Positions 3,550-37,855 of a DNA stretch of 64,000 nucleotides are shown here, piece after piece. The position numbers and the translations under genes are program-made. Below the pieces are notes generated by a model. It had not been told where the DNA came from, did not search any database, and was given only the letters and a program-made list of their open reading frames with translations. Position 1 is the first letter of the stretch. The number at the start of each line of letters is the position of its first letter. The stretch is from a virus (Duplodnaviria; Caudoviricetes), in the IMG/VR virus record IMGVR_UViG_3300029288_000001, positions 32,001-96,000 of that record; one strand, 5' to 3'.

Positions 3550-4617
3550 TCATAGCTCTTGTTCCTCTCTCTTTTCCATTTTGGGTAAGTTCTCCTTTAC
3601 TCGTTTCGTGATGTAGTTGTCTAATCTATCCCATCTTTTGTCTATCGTGAGGAAAACACCGCTCTTGTGCGTTAAGTCCGTGCGTGCGGCGATCTCTTTT
3701 CTTGGAACACCTTGCACCTTCTTACATTCCTCTAAAACAGCCGTGCGAGTGTCGAAATATGCTTTCTCTAAATATGCTACCATTTCTCTAAGCTCGGTGC
3801 AGAACTCCTCGGGAATCGTGAGTATTAGTTCTTCGTCCACTTTCCCATCTTTCATACTTCCACATAAATTCTTGTAGGTAAGGTTCGCTAATAACTTCGC
3901 CACTTCGAAATATCTCTTTGATTTAAACTTTACTCGTTCTCCTCCCTTATAGAGCGCTACGAACCCTTCTTGGTCGAGCTCGCGGTGCGTTTCTTGCCAT
4001 TCGAACATCTGCTCGGGCGTAATAGTAAATTCCTTGACTAGCTCCATTTTAAGGTCCTGGTTAATTTTCTCTACTAACTTACGCGGGAGCTCTCCTACGG
4101 ACTTATCGAAGATCGCGAGTAGGACGAACTTCTCTTCCTTACCGTAATCGATCACGATTCTATTCTCGGGATATATGATCTCGGCTAAGATCGTGTAGTC
4201 GTGTGGAACCATCGAAAGATCGTGCTTCTTTAACATCTCCGTCGCTTTAATAGACTGCTCAGACGCGAACGACCCGCGCGTGTTAACTCTCCACTTCCCG
4301 TCGTACCAATAGATTATTCCTAGAGAGCCATCGACCTTCTCGGTAATCGATACTGGCTTCGCGGCAAGAAACCTCTTCTGTTCCTCGGGAGAGAACTCGC
4401 TTAGATTGAAGAATTTCGAGAACGGTCTCGCGACGAGATCGCCAGTATGCGCGTCGTATATGTGCCCTCTCGAATTGATCGTGATGTCGTTCCATATTTT
4501 ATCGAACTGGCACTTGTCTGAGTAGTTAAAGAGCACCAGCTTGCCGTCGTCGGAAAATTTCCGCATGAGGTAGCCTTGGTCGATCAACTCGTCTATGCGT
4601 TTATCCTTTATGTCCAT
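3550..4617 (-). CDS. T4 Rnl1-like RNA ligase
   Basis: SRG...ARPFSKFFN, EKVDGSL, TRGSF, AEIIYPENRIV, EGFV, VKFK motifs. Confidence 0.88.
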   Translation of the reverse strand: MDIKDKRIDELIDQGYLMRKFSDDGKLVLFNYSDKCQFDKIWNDITINSRGHIYDAHTGDLVARPFSKFFNLSEFSPEEQKRFLAAKPVSITEKVDGSLGIIYWYDGKWRVNTRGSFASEQSIKATEMLKKHDLSMVPHDYTILAEIIYPENRIVIDYGKEEKFVLLAIFDKSVGELPRKLVEKINQDLKMELVKEFTITPEQMFEWQETHRELDQEGFVALYKGGERVKFKSKRYFEVAKLLANLTYKNLCGSMKDGKVDEELILTIPEEFCTELREMVAYLEKAYFDTRTAVLEECKKVQGVPRKEIAARTDLTHKSGVFLTIDKRWDRLDNYITKRVKENLPKMEKREEQEL

Positions 4618-12395: not shown

Positions 12396-13181
12396 TTATT
12401 TAGCTTGAATTTCTTCTCGGTCACTTCCTTTTTCTACCTCGTTACCATTCATTCTACTCGTTATATAATTCCGATCGGTCGAAAAGATCGGTATTTCGTT
12501 GTCCACGACCCATTCTCCTCGTTCTACCAATCCCGTAAAGTATGGAGGTTTATCTACGTAGACGGAATTCTTGACCTTGATCACGCATCTCCCTCGCTTT
12601 AGCTTAGTCGGTAGCTTGTCCCAATTGTCTCCTTTTTCGTAGATCATGTCGTGCATTTTATGTCCATCGCACCCTTGGAGCTTCTTTTGGGAGTAATACT
12701 TCCGTGCGAGCATCTGTAAGGAATTCCGTTCCCAATCGCGCTGTCGAAAGATAAAGTAATTTACTACATCGAACTCGGGCACGGAAAACGCTCTACTATC
12801 GAAGCTAACGATCGTGTCTTTCTTTAGATCGTGTTGATGTTTCCAGAGCATGCAATACGCCGTCGCTAAGGACGCAGAGATCGTGGTTATCTTAACAACT
12901 TTATTGTCGAACCACGGATCGCTCTCGTAGCCGTTGTGGAGGAGGATGTTGATCTCGTCTGATTGTAGATACGCGAACCGTGCGCCAGAGATCACCTTGC
13001 ACAGCTCCACCGCTACGAACTCCATCATTTCTACGAATTTATTATCGAATGGCTTCTCTAACCCTCGCGTGAAGGTGTGGAACGCCCGTCCGTCAATTCT
13101 AACGATCACGGGTATGTTATACGGTAAGGTATACGAAAAACACTTCTCGTAGTCCTTCATTCTATCGTCTAGATCTTTCAT
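12396..13181 (-). CDS. thg1: tRNA(His) guanylyltransferase Thg1-like protein
   Basis: RMKDYE, RIDGRAFHTFT, YLQSDEI, FDSR, YFIFRQRDWERNS. Confidence 0.93.
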   Translation of the reverse strand: MKDLDDRMKDYEKCFSYTLPYNIPVIVRIDGRAFHTFTRGLEKPFDNKFVEMMEFVAVELCKVISGARFAYLQSDEINILLHNGYESDPWFDNKVVKITTISASLATAYCMLWKHQHDLKKDTIVSFDSRAFSVPEFDVVNYFIFRQRDWERNSLQMLARKYYSQKKLQGCDGHKMHDMIYEKGDNWDKLPTKLKRGRCVIKVKNSVYVDKPPYFTGLVERGEWVVDNEIPIFSTDRNYITSRMNGNEVEKGSDREEIQAK

Positions 13182-31848: not shown

Positions 31849-32496
31849 TATTTATATCAATAAATAAATAATTAGAGATCGAGAAATTTAGATTCTTTTC
31901 TTTTCTTCGTATACGCCTTGCGCATTACAAAGTTCCACGACTTGTTACGGTCTATAAACAACCACATTACATCCCACAACCAGTCTAGAACCTTTAAAAC
32001 AAACAAGATCGGGCGATGGGACTCAAGATTCTGCTCGCATTCCCCACTAACTACGCGAATCGTTCCTTCTTTAGTCTTACCTAGAAATATACGAATCTTA
32101 GTCGGTTTTACGTTAAAAAAAGAGTTTATCTTCATGTGCCCCTTCTCGTGGATATAGACGATTCTCATCTTATCGTGGAGCTTTTTTATTATGCTTAGAG
32201 GTATTTTTACCTTTAACGGATTATTTATTTTATAGCTTTCTATTGTCATGTTTAATCCTCTTACAGTATAATTTAAAAATATTAAAAAAAATAAGGTTTA
32301 AAGGTTATTTTTTATAGTTGGGAGTTACTTTACAGTGGATTATGTCGAATTCAAAACCGCAGTTATCGCACTTAACCCATTCTCTTACCGTAGCGTTACA
32401 GATCTTAGACATGTCCGCTTGTATGTGCGGAACTTCTGCGCCACATTTTGGACACTCTACGCCACATTCTGGACCAGTCTCGATATCTGAGGTCAT

Positions 32497-33894
32497 TTAT
32501 TCTCCCCCGATTCCGTCTTCCGTCACGGTAAAGATCGCTTCTCCTTCTGGGAGACACGGCGAGTCTACGATCTTGGCGATCCTCTGCTCTCCTTTTCCTT
32601 TCCTCAGATACACGCGCATAGTCGTGCCGTGGGCGACGATGTTCCCCCCTGCCGCTTGAATTGGATTTCCGTAGAATGTATCGGGCTTCGATTGAACCTG
32701 ATTCGTAACGATGATCGCTAAGTCGGGATAAATGTCGCACAGTCTCAACAGATCGTGGATGTGGCTATTAAGGGTTTGTTGCCGATTCGCTAAGGTCCCT
32801 CTCCCAACATACTCGCTTCTAAAGTGTCCTACGAGAGAATCTACGATCACGAGTTTTATGTTCCTCTCTTTCACAAAATTTTGGTTTAATAATTGTTTCG
32901 CGAGGAGGATTTGGTGATCGCAGTTATACACGCGTCCATAAAGGATATTCTTTAACGCCTTATCGGGATCGATTCCTTTAGCTTTCGCCATGCTGATAAT
33001 ACGCTCGGGTCGAAAAGTTCCTTCTGTATCTAGATAAACGGCAGTGCCTCCTAGTCCACCGCTTTCCTTGGGTAGCTGGACGTTCACGCAGAGCTGATGG
33101 GCGATCTGTGTCTTTCCGGTTCTATATTCCCCAAAGAACTCGGTCATGCTTCCCGTTTCTATACCCCCTCCCAACAACTCGTCTAACTCGTGGGAGCTCG
33201 TGGTTATTCGCGCCATGTTCCTTCTATGTTCCCAGACTTCTGTTCCAGATTTGAAACATACGTTAGCTTTTTCCATCGCGTCTTTTATAATCTTCTCGGC
33301 GGTCTTTTCTCCCAGCCCGCTCTCTTCTTGGATGATCTTGGGAGGAGTCATGGCAATAGATTCGAAACTACTAAAACCTGCCTTCACGAGCTTCGTCGCG
33401 GTCGCTTTTCCTACGCCTTCGATTGTCATTATTAACGCTACGGCGTCCGCATCTGCGCCACTCATGTCTATCTTCTCGTCGTCGTCAGTATCCTTGTCCT
33501 TGTCTTTACTCTTGGATTTCGCCTTCGCCTTCTTGGTCTTAGTCTTAGTCTTGGGTTCTGCATCCTCGTTCTCGTCCTTACCTGCGAGATCGAACTCTTC
33601 TTCTTCTATTTCTTCTAAGAAATTAACATCTTCCTCAATAGGGGCGGGCTTCTCTTTCACCTCTTCTTCGAGACCGACCTTCTTGGGAGGATCCTCCTCG
33701 ACTACGAGTTCCATCTCTTCTACTACTATTTCTTTCTTCTCTTCTTCGTTGGTTTTTACTTCCATATTTTTATTCACTTCCGCGCCACCGACCCCTTCTG
33801 GGACTTCCTCCTTCGCGAACTTCAAATGCTCTTCGTAGATCTTTCCCTTCTGGTGGTTGTGGTGGCATTCCGTACAATAATATTCCTTTTCCAT
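32497..33894 (-). CDS. radA: RadA recombinase with long N-terminal extension
   Basis: HhH domain, Walker A GEYRTGKT, DTEGTFRPER, VIVDS, GRGTLANRQQ, TNQV, GGNIVAH, DSPCLPE. Confidence 0.97.
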   Translation of the reverse strand: MEKEYYCTECHHNHQKGKIYEEHLKFAKEEVPEGVGGAEVNKNMEVKTNEEEKKEIVVEEMELVVEEDPPKKVGLEEEVKEKPAPIEEDVNFLEEIEEEEFDLAGKDENEDAEPKTKTKTKKAKAKSKSKDKDKDTDDDEKIDMSGADADAVALIMTIEGVGKATATKLVKAGFSSFESIAMTPPKIIQEESGLGEKTAEKIIKDAMEKANVCFKSGTEVWEHRRNMARITTSSHELDELLGGGIETGSMTEFFGEYRTGKTQIAHQLCVNVQLPKESGGLGGTAVYLDTEGTFRPERIISMAKAKGIDPDKALKNILYGRVYNCDHQILLAKQLLNQNFVKERNIKLVIVDSLVGHFRSEYVGRGTLANRQQTLNSHIHDLLRLCDIYPDLAIIVTNQVQSKPDTFYGNPIQAAGGNIVAHGTTMRVYLRKGKGEQRIAKIVDSPCLPEGEAIFTVTEDGIGGE

Positions 33895-33984: not shown

Positions 33985-36442
33985 TTATTCTTCTTTTAAA
34001 TATTTTGGTGTCTTATACTCCGCGTATTTATCTAACCCTTTCTTGGGTATGAATTTATCTACGATCGGATAATGCTTGTGCTCTAAGATGTCTTTTACAT
34101 CGAAGTAATGAATAGTAATCTCGTTCTCGCGTTTTAACCGCGCTACCTCCGCTCTAAAATCCGCCGAGAATTCCGTCGCGATGAAGATCCCTTCCGTCTG
34201 CTTCTCTCTTAATAGAGTCCCGCTAAACGCGTCTAGATGAGCGCGCCCCGCCTTGAATTTCTTTACTTGGATAAGGCACTCCCCCAGATTGCCGTCTATG
34301 CCGCCGTCGGCGCCTCTATTGCCCGAGAAGCCTCCAAACTCGCGTATGACGAAGTTCTGGAACTCGTAGCCGTCAAGCTGGGCGATCTCCTCGGGGGTGA
34401 TGGGTAGTCCTTCTATGATATCGAACCTTACTTTAAGGCGCTTGGCGATCAACCTACACGCAGTAGGAGATACATCTATTCCGATCCATTGCCTGTTGAG
34501 TTTCTTCGCTACGGCGATCGTTGTGCCACAGTTCCCATTCAATATTACTTTTCCTTCTCTTCTTATAATGATTATATGGGAAGGAACTGTTACACAATAT
34601 ACATAGTCGTTCCAATCAATAATTTCTGCGTGTTTTAATGTAGACTCGGTTCGTTTAATCGTTCCGCTGATGCAATAACATATACTCTTCGACCAGAATA
34701 ATCGACCATCCTTTGACATTTTTTTCTCCGTTCGTGGTAGTCGTTTTGAAATCGTAACACATATACCAAGCTTAACCATTATTTCTGCTATGTTATCAAT
34801 TAATTGTTTTGAAATGCTATAGATCCGTATTCCATCTTCCCTTGTCATTCCATCTGATAAGATTAAGCCTTCTAATACATCTTGTAAGTATGGTTTATCG
34901 TAGTTTAGAACTTCTCTTGGTATCGTGCGTGTTGGTTGTTTGTGGCATTGTTTAAGATAAGTAAAGATCTCTTCGTTGTTAAAGGTATATCGTCCTTCAG
35001 TTTTCTTCCAAACTATGTTCATTTTGTTTAAGAAGTTTTTAATGTAACTATCGTTGTCTTTTATTTGGCGTATTCCTACACGATACCCCGTTGATGTTTT
35101 TCCTTCGTCAATATATCCATCACCTAGCCAGAATCCAAGGAACTTACACCATGCGTGTGGGTCTATGTTATTTGGTGGTTTCGGTATATTTCCAGAGCTA
35201 ATTCCATTGCAGTTTCTTTTAATTTTCGCTAGCCATTTTATGTCCTTAGCTTTGATAAAATCATAATCTGTATAATGAAATGTTGGGGCGGTCTTTCTCT
35301 CAGCCGCATACATGTTATGATCGGGCGTGACTAAAATGTCATACATTGTGGATTTCCAGTGATACATCTTTCCATTATGGATATATTTCTGTTTCGTTAT
35401 AGCATCTACATATTCAATGGTATTACCTTCTACTTGGGCGATCCTTTCGTTTTCTAGGTTCTTAAATTTTACCCATCCGTTCTCTGTTAATAACTCCGTT
35501 TCTCCATCGTAACATCCACAAAACGCGTCAAGGACGACATCGTTCTCGTTGGAACTGGTTTTGATTATACGTTCTAAGAGCGCTTCTGGCTTCTGTGTTG
35601 GATAACCAAGTCGTTCTTTTGATGACGGATGTAAATACATTCCATCCCATACATCTGAGCATGGTATATTAGCATCGAGATATTTTTTATAATTAGGTAA
35701 TCCTCCACTCGACCATTCGAACTCTCCACCATTCCTTACGAATTCGTCTATCTTATTTTGAGTCCATACCCAACCGTGTTTATTATCTAATTGAACTGTT
35801 TTGTCTTCCGTTGGGAAGTATCTACTTTGACCTTTTGAGACATCTACATAACTATTAGCTTTTATGATAGTTATACTTCTATAATATCCTTTGTTATCTT
35901 TTTTCTTGTATTGACCAGATAGATCTTTGGACTTTTCTTTTTGAATGTTAAATATATAATCGTCTGATTTGGTATAAATCAATATTACATCGTGGATTAC
36001 TCCAAATTTATTAGTGCCAGTTCCTTTAGCGTTCGTTCTCAACCAGCATATACGATTTAAAGGATCTCTATCGAATATTTGATCGCATAGAACTCTTAAA
36101 TACGCGTCCGCGTGCCAGTCGCAATGGAGATAGAAGCTTCCCGTTTTTTTAAGAACCCGATATATTTCCTTAATTCTCGGTTCCATCCACTCCAGATACA
36201 CGTTGATATCCTTCTTCGCCCGTCCGCTCCCGTTCTTGTTCTCGGTAATCCAACGGTCTCCAAACTGCCGTATTTCCGCGCCGTCGCCCCAAATGACCTC
36301 GTAGTTCTTGATCGCGAAGGATTAGTAAAATCTAATCGGTTTTCGTGAAGAACGGAGGGTCTATGTAGACGAGATCGACGGACTCGGATTCCAAGGTCTT
36401 GAGGACTTCTAAATTATCTCCACATATTATTCTTTCTATCAT
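33985..36442 (-). CDS. N6/N4 DNA methyltransferase (beta class) fused to an Mrr-like nuclease domain; contains an intein and a predicted 31-nt intron
   Basis: Exon 1 (36442-36342) reads MIERIICGDNLEVL...DLVYIDPPFFT. Exon 2 has YLHCD, YPTQKPEALLERII, DAFCG/CGTT, and a C-terminal GYEFQ...DGGIDG...IQVK. Confidence 0.88.
34531..35514 (-). mobile_element. Intein (328 aa) with LAGLIDADG homing endonuclease
   Basis: Splits the SAM motif DAFCG|CGT. Starts CYDGETELLTENGW and ends VYCVTVP...GN|C; contains FLGFWLGDG and LEGLILSDG. Confidence 0.93.
36311..36341 (-). other. Predicted BHB-type mRNA intron, 31 nt
   Basis: GUUCUU CACG AA^A...GAUUAG-loop-CUAAUC...CGCG AU^C AAGAAC. Removal deletes an in-frame TAG and fixes the frame, giving DPPFFTNKNYEVIWGD. 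Confidence 0.75.
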
Positions 36443-37855
36443 TTTAATAACCTCTCTAAATATTCTGGATGATCCCTTTTCCATATTACGCCTTCTATTG
36501 AATATGGACTAATTCCTCTTTTTATAAGATCATCGTCTAATTTCTGAAAGATATTTTGTTTTCTTTTTCTTTTCTTCATTTCCTTAAACCTCTTTCTTGT
36601 TTTATGATCGTTTTAAACTATTTAAATAAAATTATTAATTAGAACTTACTTAGCGAAGGAGCAGATTCGTTAAATACTCCCATTCCTGTTTCTCTTCTTC
36701 CGTTACCTCTTCTTTCTTTAATACCAGCTTGGTGCGTAGGTAAATCCAACGATACGCGCGTTTCTTATCTATCCTTTTCGCGAGAATTTCTAACGCTTCT
36801 TCGCTTGGAAGACCTTTCTTTAACTTTTCAAAGTCTTCTAACGCTTCCATGAATTCTTTCACGGATTATCTCCTTCCAATTTCAAGAAATAAATACCTTC
36901 CTTCCCAATGTCATACCCCCGTATCCGATATTTCCGCTCGGGGTGGTTCTTGGTCGCGCGTTCAAGGCACGACTCGCAGAGCGCGATCACTTTAGAACCG
37001 CACCGCCAGCGCATTAATTCGCCTTTCGCGTCGTAGATGTCCACCGGGAGACCATCCTTGATACAGTCTTTTCCGCAGCACTTTACCACGTTATTTCTTC
37101 TCCAACTCCTTTTTATCGATTCCGCTTGCCAATTTATTAAAACACGCCCTACAAATTCGTTTCCCTTCGAACATAAACACTTGCCGTCGCTTCAATTTGG
37201 CAACGCACAACCCACAATACTTTTGTTTGGGTTCTCTTTTATAATCCGTTACTATTGGGCTCATGGTTCCTTTCTACCTCTCGGTCTCTTTTTTAATCCT
37301 CGTCGTCTTCTTCTTCTTCGTCGTCCTCGTCCTCGGTTATGGTGTCCATCGCCATTTCCCGTTCGTCTCTCGGAAGCTCGGATATCATGGACGCTCCCAG
37401 CATTCCAAACCACTCGCTATCGAGGACTACGGTGAGCTCGTTGTCTCCTTCCTTAATGCGGAAGTAATACTCACCTTCGTCGTTGTGACCTACAAGGTAA
37501 CGGATCTTCTTTCCTATATAATTTCTTTCTTCTTTCGTACCCTCCTTTTCGTAGCAGTCCCCGCACATTCCATGTTGTGTTATGGACTTTTTAATATCGC
37601 TAAAAAAAGACGAAGACACCACAATGGGAAGGATGGTTTCTCCTTCTTGAAAAGATATTGGCTCATTCATAGTATCAGACCATTTTCTTTTACATATTGG
37701 ACATTCTATATTCATATTTTTACACCTTTTTTATTCCGTAGTTCCCCGACTCGATCTGAGTCTAGGTTTAAAATAGGAAAAAAATGATTTGGTTTGGGTT
37801 TATATGTGTTTCGATTGAGGTAAAATTGTTCGTTTTCGTTCGTGATCGTCATAGA

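Follow-up and report, generated by a model that had tools for sequence, protein, structure and literature searches.

A putative 31-nucleotide archaeal-type intron in the DNA methyltransferase gene of an archaeal virus

Can a viral gene that is interrupted beside its catalytic motif still yield a full-length enzyme? This question is raised by a DNA methyltransferase gene in the virus record IMGVR_UViG_3300029288_000001 (Duplodnaviria; Caudoviricetes). The window analysed is a stretch of 64,000 nucleotides (nt), positions 32,001 to 96,000 of that record. Coordinates are window positions unless marked G000:C1, and the gene lies on the minus strand. Its upstream open reading frame (ORF), 36484-36332, reads MEKGSS...VDLVYIDPPFFTKTD and ends in ...DPPFFTKTD, followed by a TAG codon at 36334-36332. 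The remainder of the gene, which begins NYEVIWGDGAEIRQFGDRW..., is in a different frame and extends from 36310 to 33985. Gene-caller output splits the gene into ORFs of 50 and 738 amino acids (aa). The 31 nt that separate the two coding parts hold the frame-1 TAG just named and a frame-2 TAA at 36324-36322. Translation may begin at ATG 36484 or, more likely, at the internal ATG 36442, which lines up with the N-termini of homologues. The downstream part matches PF01555 (N6_N4_Mtase, 1.3e-38), LAGLIDADG_3, Hom_end and Mrr_cat, the last of these (PF04471) being common to most homologues of the methyltransferase.

Removal of the insert restores the gene. Excision of minus-strand positions 36341-36311 joins ...ACGAA to CAAGAAC... 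and gives an 822-aa protein with the junction DPPFFTNKNYEVIWGD. In RNA the predicted spliced junction is TTCACGAA followed by CAAGAAC, that is, ...TTCTTCACGAA joined to CAAGAACTACGAGG.... No second frameshift or stop occurs across the 822 codons of the spliced gene, including those of an intein. An original prediction, made from the letters of this DNA, had placed a TAG just after DPPFFT with the rest of the gene in another frame. It had further claimed that cuts after the second base of two RNA bulges would remove exactly 31 nt and yield DPPFFT-N-KNYEVIWGD. Both claims are borne out, and the family pattern that it invoked does exist.

That pattern emerges from a homologue search in which the first 300 residues after the break served as the query. 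Thousands of uninterrupted methyltransferases were found. The best two, P0001 and P0002, are 484 aa long and 77-78% identical; two relatives at this level of identity read DPPFFTNK(N/H)YEVIW. Four homologues (P0002, P0021, P0027 and P0037) read DPPFFTNKNYE exactly, and P0008 reads DPPFFSNRNYEIIWGD. When the spliced N-terminus is aligned with 40 homologues, no gap is present anywhere near the junction, and the junction residues TNKN are the same as in the closest relatives. Over its full length the spliced protein is colinear with the homologues, with the 328-aa intein as the sole exception. The DNA gives the same answer: against the two closest relatives, contigs L001 and L002, the window shows a single clean gap of 31 nt, and no different deletion is needed. 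The exon sides of this gap are conserved, with ACNAA 5' of it and YAAGAAY 3' of it, which fixes the boundaries of the insert to within one base. Apart from the methyltransferase these two contigs have nothing in common with the viral genome.

The same boundaries coincide with an RNA fold of the bulge-helix-bulge (BHB) type. From 5' to 3' the RNA reads GUUCUU-CACG-AAA-ACC-GAUUAG-AUUUUA-CUAAUC-CUU-CGCG-AUC-AAGAAC, and every element that had been predicted in it (exon helix GUUCUU/AAGAAC, central helix CACG/CGCG with one A-C mismatch, bulges AAA and AUC, hairpin GAUUAG/CUAAUC) is present at 36353-36304. The exon helix, h, consists of six Watson-Crick pairs, five of which have an ensemble probability of 0.98-0.999. 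The two bulges, AAA on one strand and AUC on the other, are separated by four positions, and a cut after the second base of each gives precisely the excision that homology requires. On each strand the orientation of helix, helix and bulge is as in tRNA introns at position 37/38. In the 3' bulge, U55 and C56 are unpaired with a probability of 0.97-1.0. A 76-nt region containing the site folds with -18.7 kcal/mol (z = -3.78), and 0 of 200 shuffled sequences fold as well.

From the sequence and its fold, the insert at 36341-36311 is probably an archaeal-type intron, spliced out of the viral methyltransferase pre-mRNA by host EndA and RtcB. The proposed mechanism is as follows. (i) The transcript would fold so that the exon edges GUUCUU and AAGAAC pair. 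(ii) The four-position central helix CACG/CGCG would then be held between two opposite-strand bulges of 3 nt, forming a relaxed BHB. (iii) The splicing endonuclease EndA of the host would cut after the second base of each bulge. (iv) A host ligase of the RtcB type would join ...ACGAA to CAAGAAC.... (v) The join would create an Asn codon and bring the DPPF motif in frame with the other 775 codons. (vi) The protein made from this message would still have its intein to splice out. EndA and RtcB were looked for in the virus genome and neither was found. As the virus supplies neither enzyme, production of the full-length methyltransferase would depend on the tRNA-splicing machinery of the host.

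The virus itself provides a setting in which such dependence would not be new. The window is part of a record of 224,826 bp with direct terminal repeats, the genome of a complete archaeal virus. Among its genes are those for MCM, a RadA/Rad51 recombinase, Thg1, an Rnl1-type RNA ligase and an AAA_22-domain ATPase of 397 aa that is perhaps Orc1/Cdc6-like. Eight tRNA genes are present, and two of them carry introns at position 37/38: tRNA-Ser(GGA), with an intron of 55 nt, and tRNA-Leu(UAA), with one of 499 nt. Rfam returns no group I match for either intron. In the tRNA-Leu motif the outer helix is 6 bp long, three of the four pairs of the central helix form (one mismatch), and the bulges are AAU and AAA, with the predicted cut after AA in each. 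The motif of the tRNA-Ser intron is looser still. Since these tRNA introns have relaxed motifs and the genome has no EndA or RtcB, the virus already depends on its host to splice introns of this relaxed kind. Its Rnl1-type ligase and Thg1 indicate that it does have tRNA repair or maturation genes of its own. As a separate observation, the tRNA-Leu intron encodes a 148-aa Endonuclease_7 protein (PF02945, E = 9.6e-22), whose stop codon adjoins the 3' splice motif.

The host is probably a member of the Asgard archaea (Promethearchaeota). The viral RadA is extended at its N-terminus by about 150 aa. Its core shares 70-73% identity with the Promethearchaeota protein, and nearly all of the best 80 genome matches to it are from Asgard archaea. 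Together, the archaeal replication and recombination set and this degree of identity point to an Asgard host, which RadA suggests and does not prove. A search with the same protein found no related virus in IMG/VR. Four such Asgard genomes each hold two EndA-domain genes, with products of about 200 aa. The nearest PDB chains are 3p1z_B, 3ajv_B, 2cv8 and 2zyz_B for one paralogue and 1a79 for the other. We take the first group to be crenarchaeal enzymes of the hetero-oligomeric class with broad specificity, 3p1z_B, 3ajv_B and 2zyz_B being catalytic subunits of heterotetramers. Two published results are relevant here. The introns of crenarchaeal cbf5 often have relaxed motifs, and their cleavage outside the tRNA context has been linked to EndA of the hetero-oligomeric type (PMC2738675). 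The tRNA genes of Asgard archaea are reported to be rich in introns, with repeated gains at BHB-capable sites (preprint, bioRxiv 10.64898/2026.10.13.758758).

Several properties of the fold, of the family and of the wider genome weigh against an intron at this site. Position 2 of the central helix is an A·C mismatch, which leaves three of its four pairs, so that the strict canonical hBHBh' motif is not present. The inner helix, h', is offset: one A-U pair is followed by a 2x2 internal loop, and only then by the perfect 6-bp hairpin. The sixth pair of the exon helix, U18-A57, sets the 31-nt register and has a probability of 0.23, against 0.74 for the preferred U18-A54. The 3' bulge is slid by one base in 74% of the ensemble. 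The BHB conformer, at -14.7 kcal/mol, lies 4 kcal/mol above the minimum-energy fold of -18.7 kcal/mol and is not the preferred conformation. In the minimum-energy fold the first two A's of the 5' bulge pair with U49 and U48, and pairing of the A's in this bulge amounts to 75-89% of the ensemble. In the slid register 33 nt would be excised and the frame would not be restored, so that the 31-nt register alone makes biological sense. Protein binding could select the BHB form over the minimum-energy fold. The BHB part of the original prediction stands as to geometry and as to canonical cuts that restore the methyltransferase; the motif itself is a relaxed one.

The distribution of the insert weighs in the same direction. 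All 24 of the 24 homologue loci in IMG/VR are continuous across the site and lack an insert. Gapped family patterns, which allow an insert of 11-41 nt between FF and YEVIW, gave 0 matches in viral contigs (Asp-codon variants) and 0 in metagenome and genome contigs (Trp-Gly variant only). The spliced-junction or intronless-allele pattern likewise gave 0 matches in JGI metagenome contigs, which says little either way. In the 225-kb genome the insert is single-copy. The 18-mer of the hairpin has five exact matches in IMG/VR, all of them chance occurrences in unrelated coding sequence that reads GLDFTNP. Short proteins of 27-88 aa were considered as N-terminal fragments of similarly split methyltransferases, and several of these break right after DPPF. 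Their contigs, however, hold large unrelated insertions or deletions, and the loci look bacterial and without short introns. The apparent N-terminally truncated homologue P0015 is merely cut by a contig end.

A further consideration is how much of the motif was available before the insert arrived. The family coding motif largely supplies the exon helix, as Phe-Phe is UUYUUY and Lys-Asn is AARAAY, and 19 of 21 intronless homologues already have 4-6 of the 6 complementary positions, with G-U counted. The exon helix is thus mostly a by-product of the family motif, and most of the site-specific significance rests on four intron bases and the hairpin. An argument for selection on the exon helix from codon usage is weak: TTC, AAC and AAG are ordinary in this genome, and only CCG is rare (15%). 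For a random position in the viral genome, a motif with an exon helix of at least six pairs, a central helix with at most one mismatch and a spacing of 31 is expected with a frequency of 4.5e-4. Of random genomic 31-mers placed at exactly this site, 6.9% form an acceptable central helix and 0.2% form one together with a hairpin of at least 6 bp. Taken with the complementarity in the homologues, these null models describe a site that is predisposed to the motif, and at which an insert that completes it is still improbable by chance.

The genome as a whole was also scanned for BHB motifs that would join reading frames, as the original prediction had suggested should be done. With filters for coding potential and start codons, 63,045 cut pairs were eligible. 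The scan recovered the methyltransferase case. It returned no excess of such motifs: 114 against about 185 expected with an exon helix of at least four pairs, and 21 against about 28 expected with at least six. On its own, the motif cannot be used to identify further cases.

These results are most readily turned into the main rival explanation, in which the insert is a recent disabling one. The gene would then be a pseudogene that is never spliced, the likeness to a BHB would be coincidental, and a 50-aa N-terminal peptide would be made together with at most an inactive C-terminal fragment. The ready-made exon helix, the modest demands on the central helix, the competing fold and the lack of any conserved counterpart to the insert are all as this explanation expects. 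A direct repeat of 4 nt, CTTC, is moreover found at a spacing of 31 nt (36350-36347 and 36319-36316) and can be read as a target duplication or as a slip site. With CTTC as the boundary, however, the ancestor would read FFAIKN, and the conserved ACNAA (Thr-Asn) of both close relatives would lie in the insert by chance. The joint chance of hairpin and central helix given above also speaks against coincidence, as does the frequency for a random site, and the hairpin is perfect over its 6 bp. The other codons of the gene, including those of the 328-aa intein, show no second lesion, and this is the only N6_N4 methyltransferase in the viral genome. On balance we consider a disabling insertion unlikely.

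A second rival keeps the insert in the message and lets the ribosome jump over it. In programmed translational bypassing, the peptidyl-tRNA-Phe would leave the second TTC codon, at 36349-36347, slide over 28 nt that contain the hairpin and land on TTC 36318-36316, giving DPPFF-AIKN-YEV.... The two identical TTC codons are spaced by exactly 31 nt and stand in the frames that this would require. A stable hairpin lies between them, and the product would have the length of the family. Known bypass elements (T4 gene 60; the mitochondrial byps of Magnusiomyces) are similar in being non-coding hairpin inserts of 27-55 nt with identical take-off and landing codons in an essential-looking ORF. They differ in the surroundings of the take-off codon: here no stop, rare or undecodable codon follows it directly, the next codon being the sense codon ACG and the TAG standing four codons on. 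Bypassing would also replace the conserved Thr-Asn by Ala-Ile (FFAIKN in place of FFTNKN), and it leaves the match of ACGAA to the DNA of the relatives unexplained. We know of no report of translational bypassing in archaea, and we regard it here as very improbable.

An assembly or sequencing artefact is extremely improbable; the original prediction had named an assembly error as able to overturn it. The length of 31 is a common k-mer size of assemblers, and only one virus population carries the insert. The 31 nt are nevertheless novel sequence, neither a duplication nor an inversion of the flanks. An independent ENA contig of 223,295 bp, assembled with MEGAHIT, is identical over 8217 of 8217 nt including the insert, which makes an assembler artefact unlikely. 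Both ORF products are also recorded from Logan assemblies, and the 50-aa product (P0121) is recorded from JGI, ENA and Logan; raw reads may be common to these assemblies, so their agreement speaks to independence from the assembler and not to the level of the population. The remaining mechanisms fail outright: a single ribosomal frameshift meets the frame-1 TAG before the frame-2 TAA, read-through of TAG stays in the wrong frame, GT-AG splicing finds no GT-AG pair, and a self-splicing group I or II intron would need a ribozyme core of hundreds of nt, for which 31 nt are too few, the window having no Rfam match at the gathering score.

With excision by host EndA and RtcB as the favoured explanation, the closest known parallel is the intron of crenarchaeal cbf5 pre-mRNA (Watanabe 2002; Yoshinari 2006; Yokobori 2009, PMC2738675). 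In the searchable literature from 2009 to 2025, splicing of archaeal pre-mRNA by the tRNA endonuclease is confirmed only for cbf5 of Crenarchaeota (PMC2738675, PMC12397907). Both kinds of insert measure tens of nucleotides, contain no ORF, interrupt a protein-coding gene at or next to a catalytic motif and have exon-intron borders with a BHB fold that is often relaxed; some cbf5 introns also shift the reading frame. The present insert differs in its gene, a DNA methyltransferase (PF01555), in residing in a virus with a presumed Asgard host, in sharing that gene with an intein, in its absence of phylogenetic conservation and in being predicted from sequence. It would belong to the same class of mechanism as the cbf5 introns, which are inherited within Crenarchaeota at a conserved position of their gene, and not to the same lineage. 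Archaeal hBHBh' tRNA introns, including those in the tRNA-Ser(GGA) and tRNA-Leu(UAA) of this virus, share the opposite-strand bulges of 3 nt, the spacing of four positions and the cut after the second base. The viral tRNA-Leu motif is also alike in its single central-helix mismatch and its AA/N bulges. In contrast to the tRNA introns, the methyltransferase insert has no tRNA body around it, its outer helix is coding sequence, its inner helix is offset and its competing fold is more stable.

Two further systems are instructive. Short inserts in protein genes of an archaeal virus were proposed as introns once before, in the case of the 12-bp 'putative introns' of the rudivirus SIRV1 (Peng et al. 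2004, as summarized in PMC2738675). According to that summary, the SIRV1 inserts keep the frame and may be translated, and their splicing was not shown. The methyltransferase insert, by comparison, has BHB geometry, breaks the frame and carries stops, and must therefore be removed if the protein is to be made. The splicing of HAC1 and XBP1 by Ire1 and a tRNA ligase or RtcB resembles the proposed process in that a short mRNA intron is excised by protein catalysis at stem-loop sites, is followed by joining through a tRNA-splicing ligase and changes the downstream frame. There the endonuclease is Ire1, the recognition motif is a different one and a regulatory role has been demonstrated; here the endonuclease is putatively EndA.

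The comparison with HAC1 and XBP1 bears on what the insert might be for. It is possible, as a matter of speculation, that the intron gates methyltransferase expression on EndA activity in the host, as originally suggested. A neutral insertion, tolerated because splicing was already possible at the site, accounts for the data just as well and is the simpler reading. A broader proposal would be that Asgard viruses may carry protein-gene introns spliced by EndA and RtcB, the methyltransferase one serving as a switch: full-length methyltransferase-Mrr would then appear only with active tRNA splicing in the host, once first the intron and then the intein had been removed. This we hold to be decidedly doubtful.

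If the insert is indeed spliced, it would extend the small cbf5-type class to a virus, to another gene and to another host lineage. Introns of mRNA that arise by the BHB route would then be more than a one-gene curiosity. The route would reach mobile genomes: the gene concerned is unrelated to cbf5, and its carrier is a virus with a probable host among the Asgard archaea, to which eukaryotes are more closely related than to any other prokaryotes. Such a case would also fit the reported settling of Asgard introns wherever RNA already forms a cleavable motif (bioRxiv 10.64898/2026.10.13.758758). Because gene callers split the methyltransferase gene, metagenome data from archaea and viruses may contain similar cases that pass for 'frameshifts'. 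A substrate of about 70 nt is small, and with so sharp a prediction the claim is directly testable in vitro.

The intein in the same gene adds a second layer to its expression. It reads CYDGE...ILNGN followed by CGTT, with Cys1, a terminal Asn and Cys+1, and has the features of a class 1 LAGLIDADG intein. Its Pfam scores are 3.1e-7 for LAGLIDADG_3 and 4.9e-5 for Hom_end. In the full-length alignment the intein block has residues only in the window protein and is missing from all five homologues. With a putative intron of 31 nt and an intein in one gene, splicing would be needed at the level of both RNA and protein. LAGLIDADG matches also occur in a few other members of the family, of 737-784 aa (P0156-P0158).

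Table 1. Positions of the features of the methyltransferase locus and of other viral genes discussed in the text.
Feature	Position	Strand	Remarks
Exon 1, DNA methyltransferase	36342..36484	-	N-terminus and catalytic motif IV DPPF; ends ...TTC TTC ACG AA
31-nt intervening sequence, putative BHB intron	36311..36341	-	reads AACCGATTAGATTTTACTAATCCTTCGCGAT
Exon 2, rest of N6_N4 methyltransferase with intein and C-terminal Mrr_cat, to stop codon	33985..36310	-	
Intein, 328 aa, with LAGLIDADG homing-endonuclease domain	34531..35514	-	S-adenosylmethionine (SAM)-binding motif I, at FCG/CGTT
Mrr_cat (restriction-endonuclease-like), C-terminal	34138..34371	-	PF04471, E = 2.3e-4; residues 648-725 of exon-2 translation
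Exon helix h, 5' strand GUUCUU	36348..36353	-	codons Pro-Phe-Phe
Exon helix h, 3' strand AAGAAC	36304..36309	-	codons Lys-Asn
Central helix H, 5' strand CACG	36344..36347	-	pairs with 36316-36313
Central helix H, 3' strand CGCG	36313..36316	-	last paired intron stretch
5' bulge AA/A	36341..36343	-	predicted cut between 36342 and 36341
3' bulge AU/C	36310..36312	-	predicted cut between 36311 and 36310
Intron hairpin GAUUAG-AUUUUA-CUAAUC, inner helix h'	36320..36337	-	pair probabilities at least 0.99
RadA	32497-33894	-	
MCM helicase (full-length)	58276-60480	-	
AAA_22 ATPase, 397 aa	60500-61693	-	
Rnl1-type RNA ligase	3550-4617	-	PF09511, 1.7e-16
Thg1 tRNA-His guanylyltransferase	12396-13181	-	PF04446, 5.2e-31
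tRNA cluster Pro, Ile, Ser, Cys, Leu	G000:C1:144516-145502	-	outside the window

Elsewhere in the genome, outside the window, a 59-nt stretch at G000:C1:140620-140678 (plus strand) forms a BHB-like structure, CGAAAU-UUAA-UAA ... UUAA-ACU-AUUUCG, in which the central helix is perfect and the exon helix measures 6 bp. Splicing there would connect an ORF of 124 codons with one of 170 codons that runs for 46 codons without ATG, GTG or TTG. As a second intron this candidate, the best-looking of the further ones, was rejected: Pfam gives no match for either ORF, and the arrangement is explained equally well by an ACG start that follows a Shine-Dalgarno-like GAGG. Many long ORFs across the genome have 20-100 leading codons that lack a canonical start. 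If several of these start-less ORFs were downstream exons of the same kind, mRNA splicing would for the first time be routine in a prokaryote-type genome. A crude, unfiltered listing contains 146 same-strand ORF pairs, many of which are probably non-coding.

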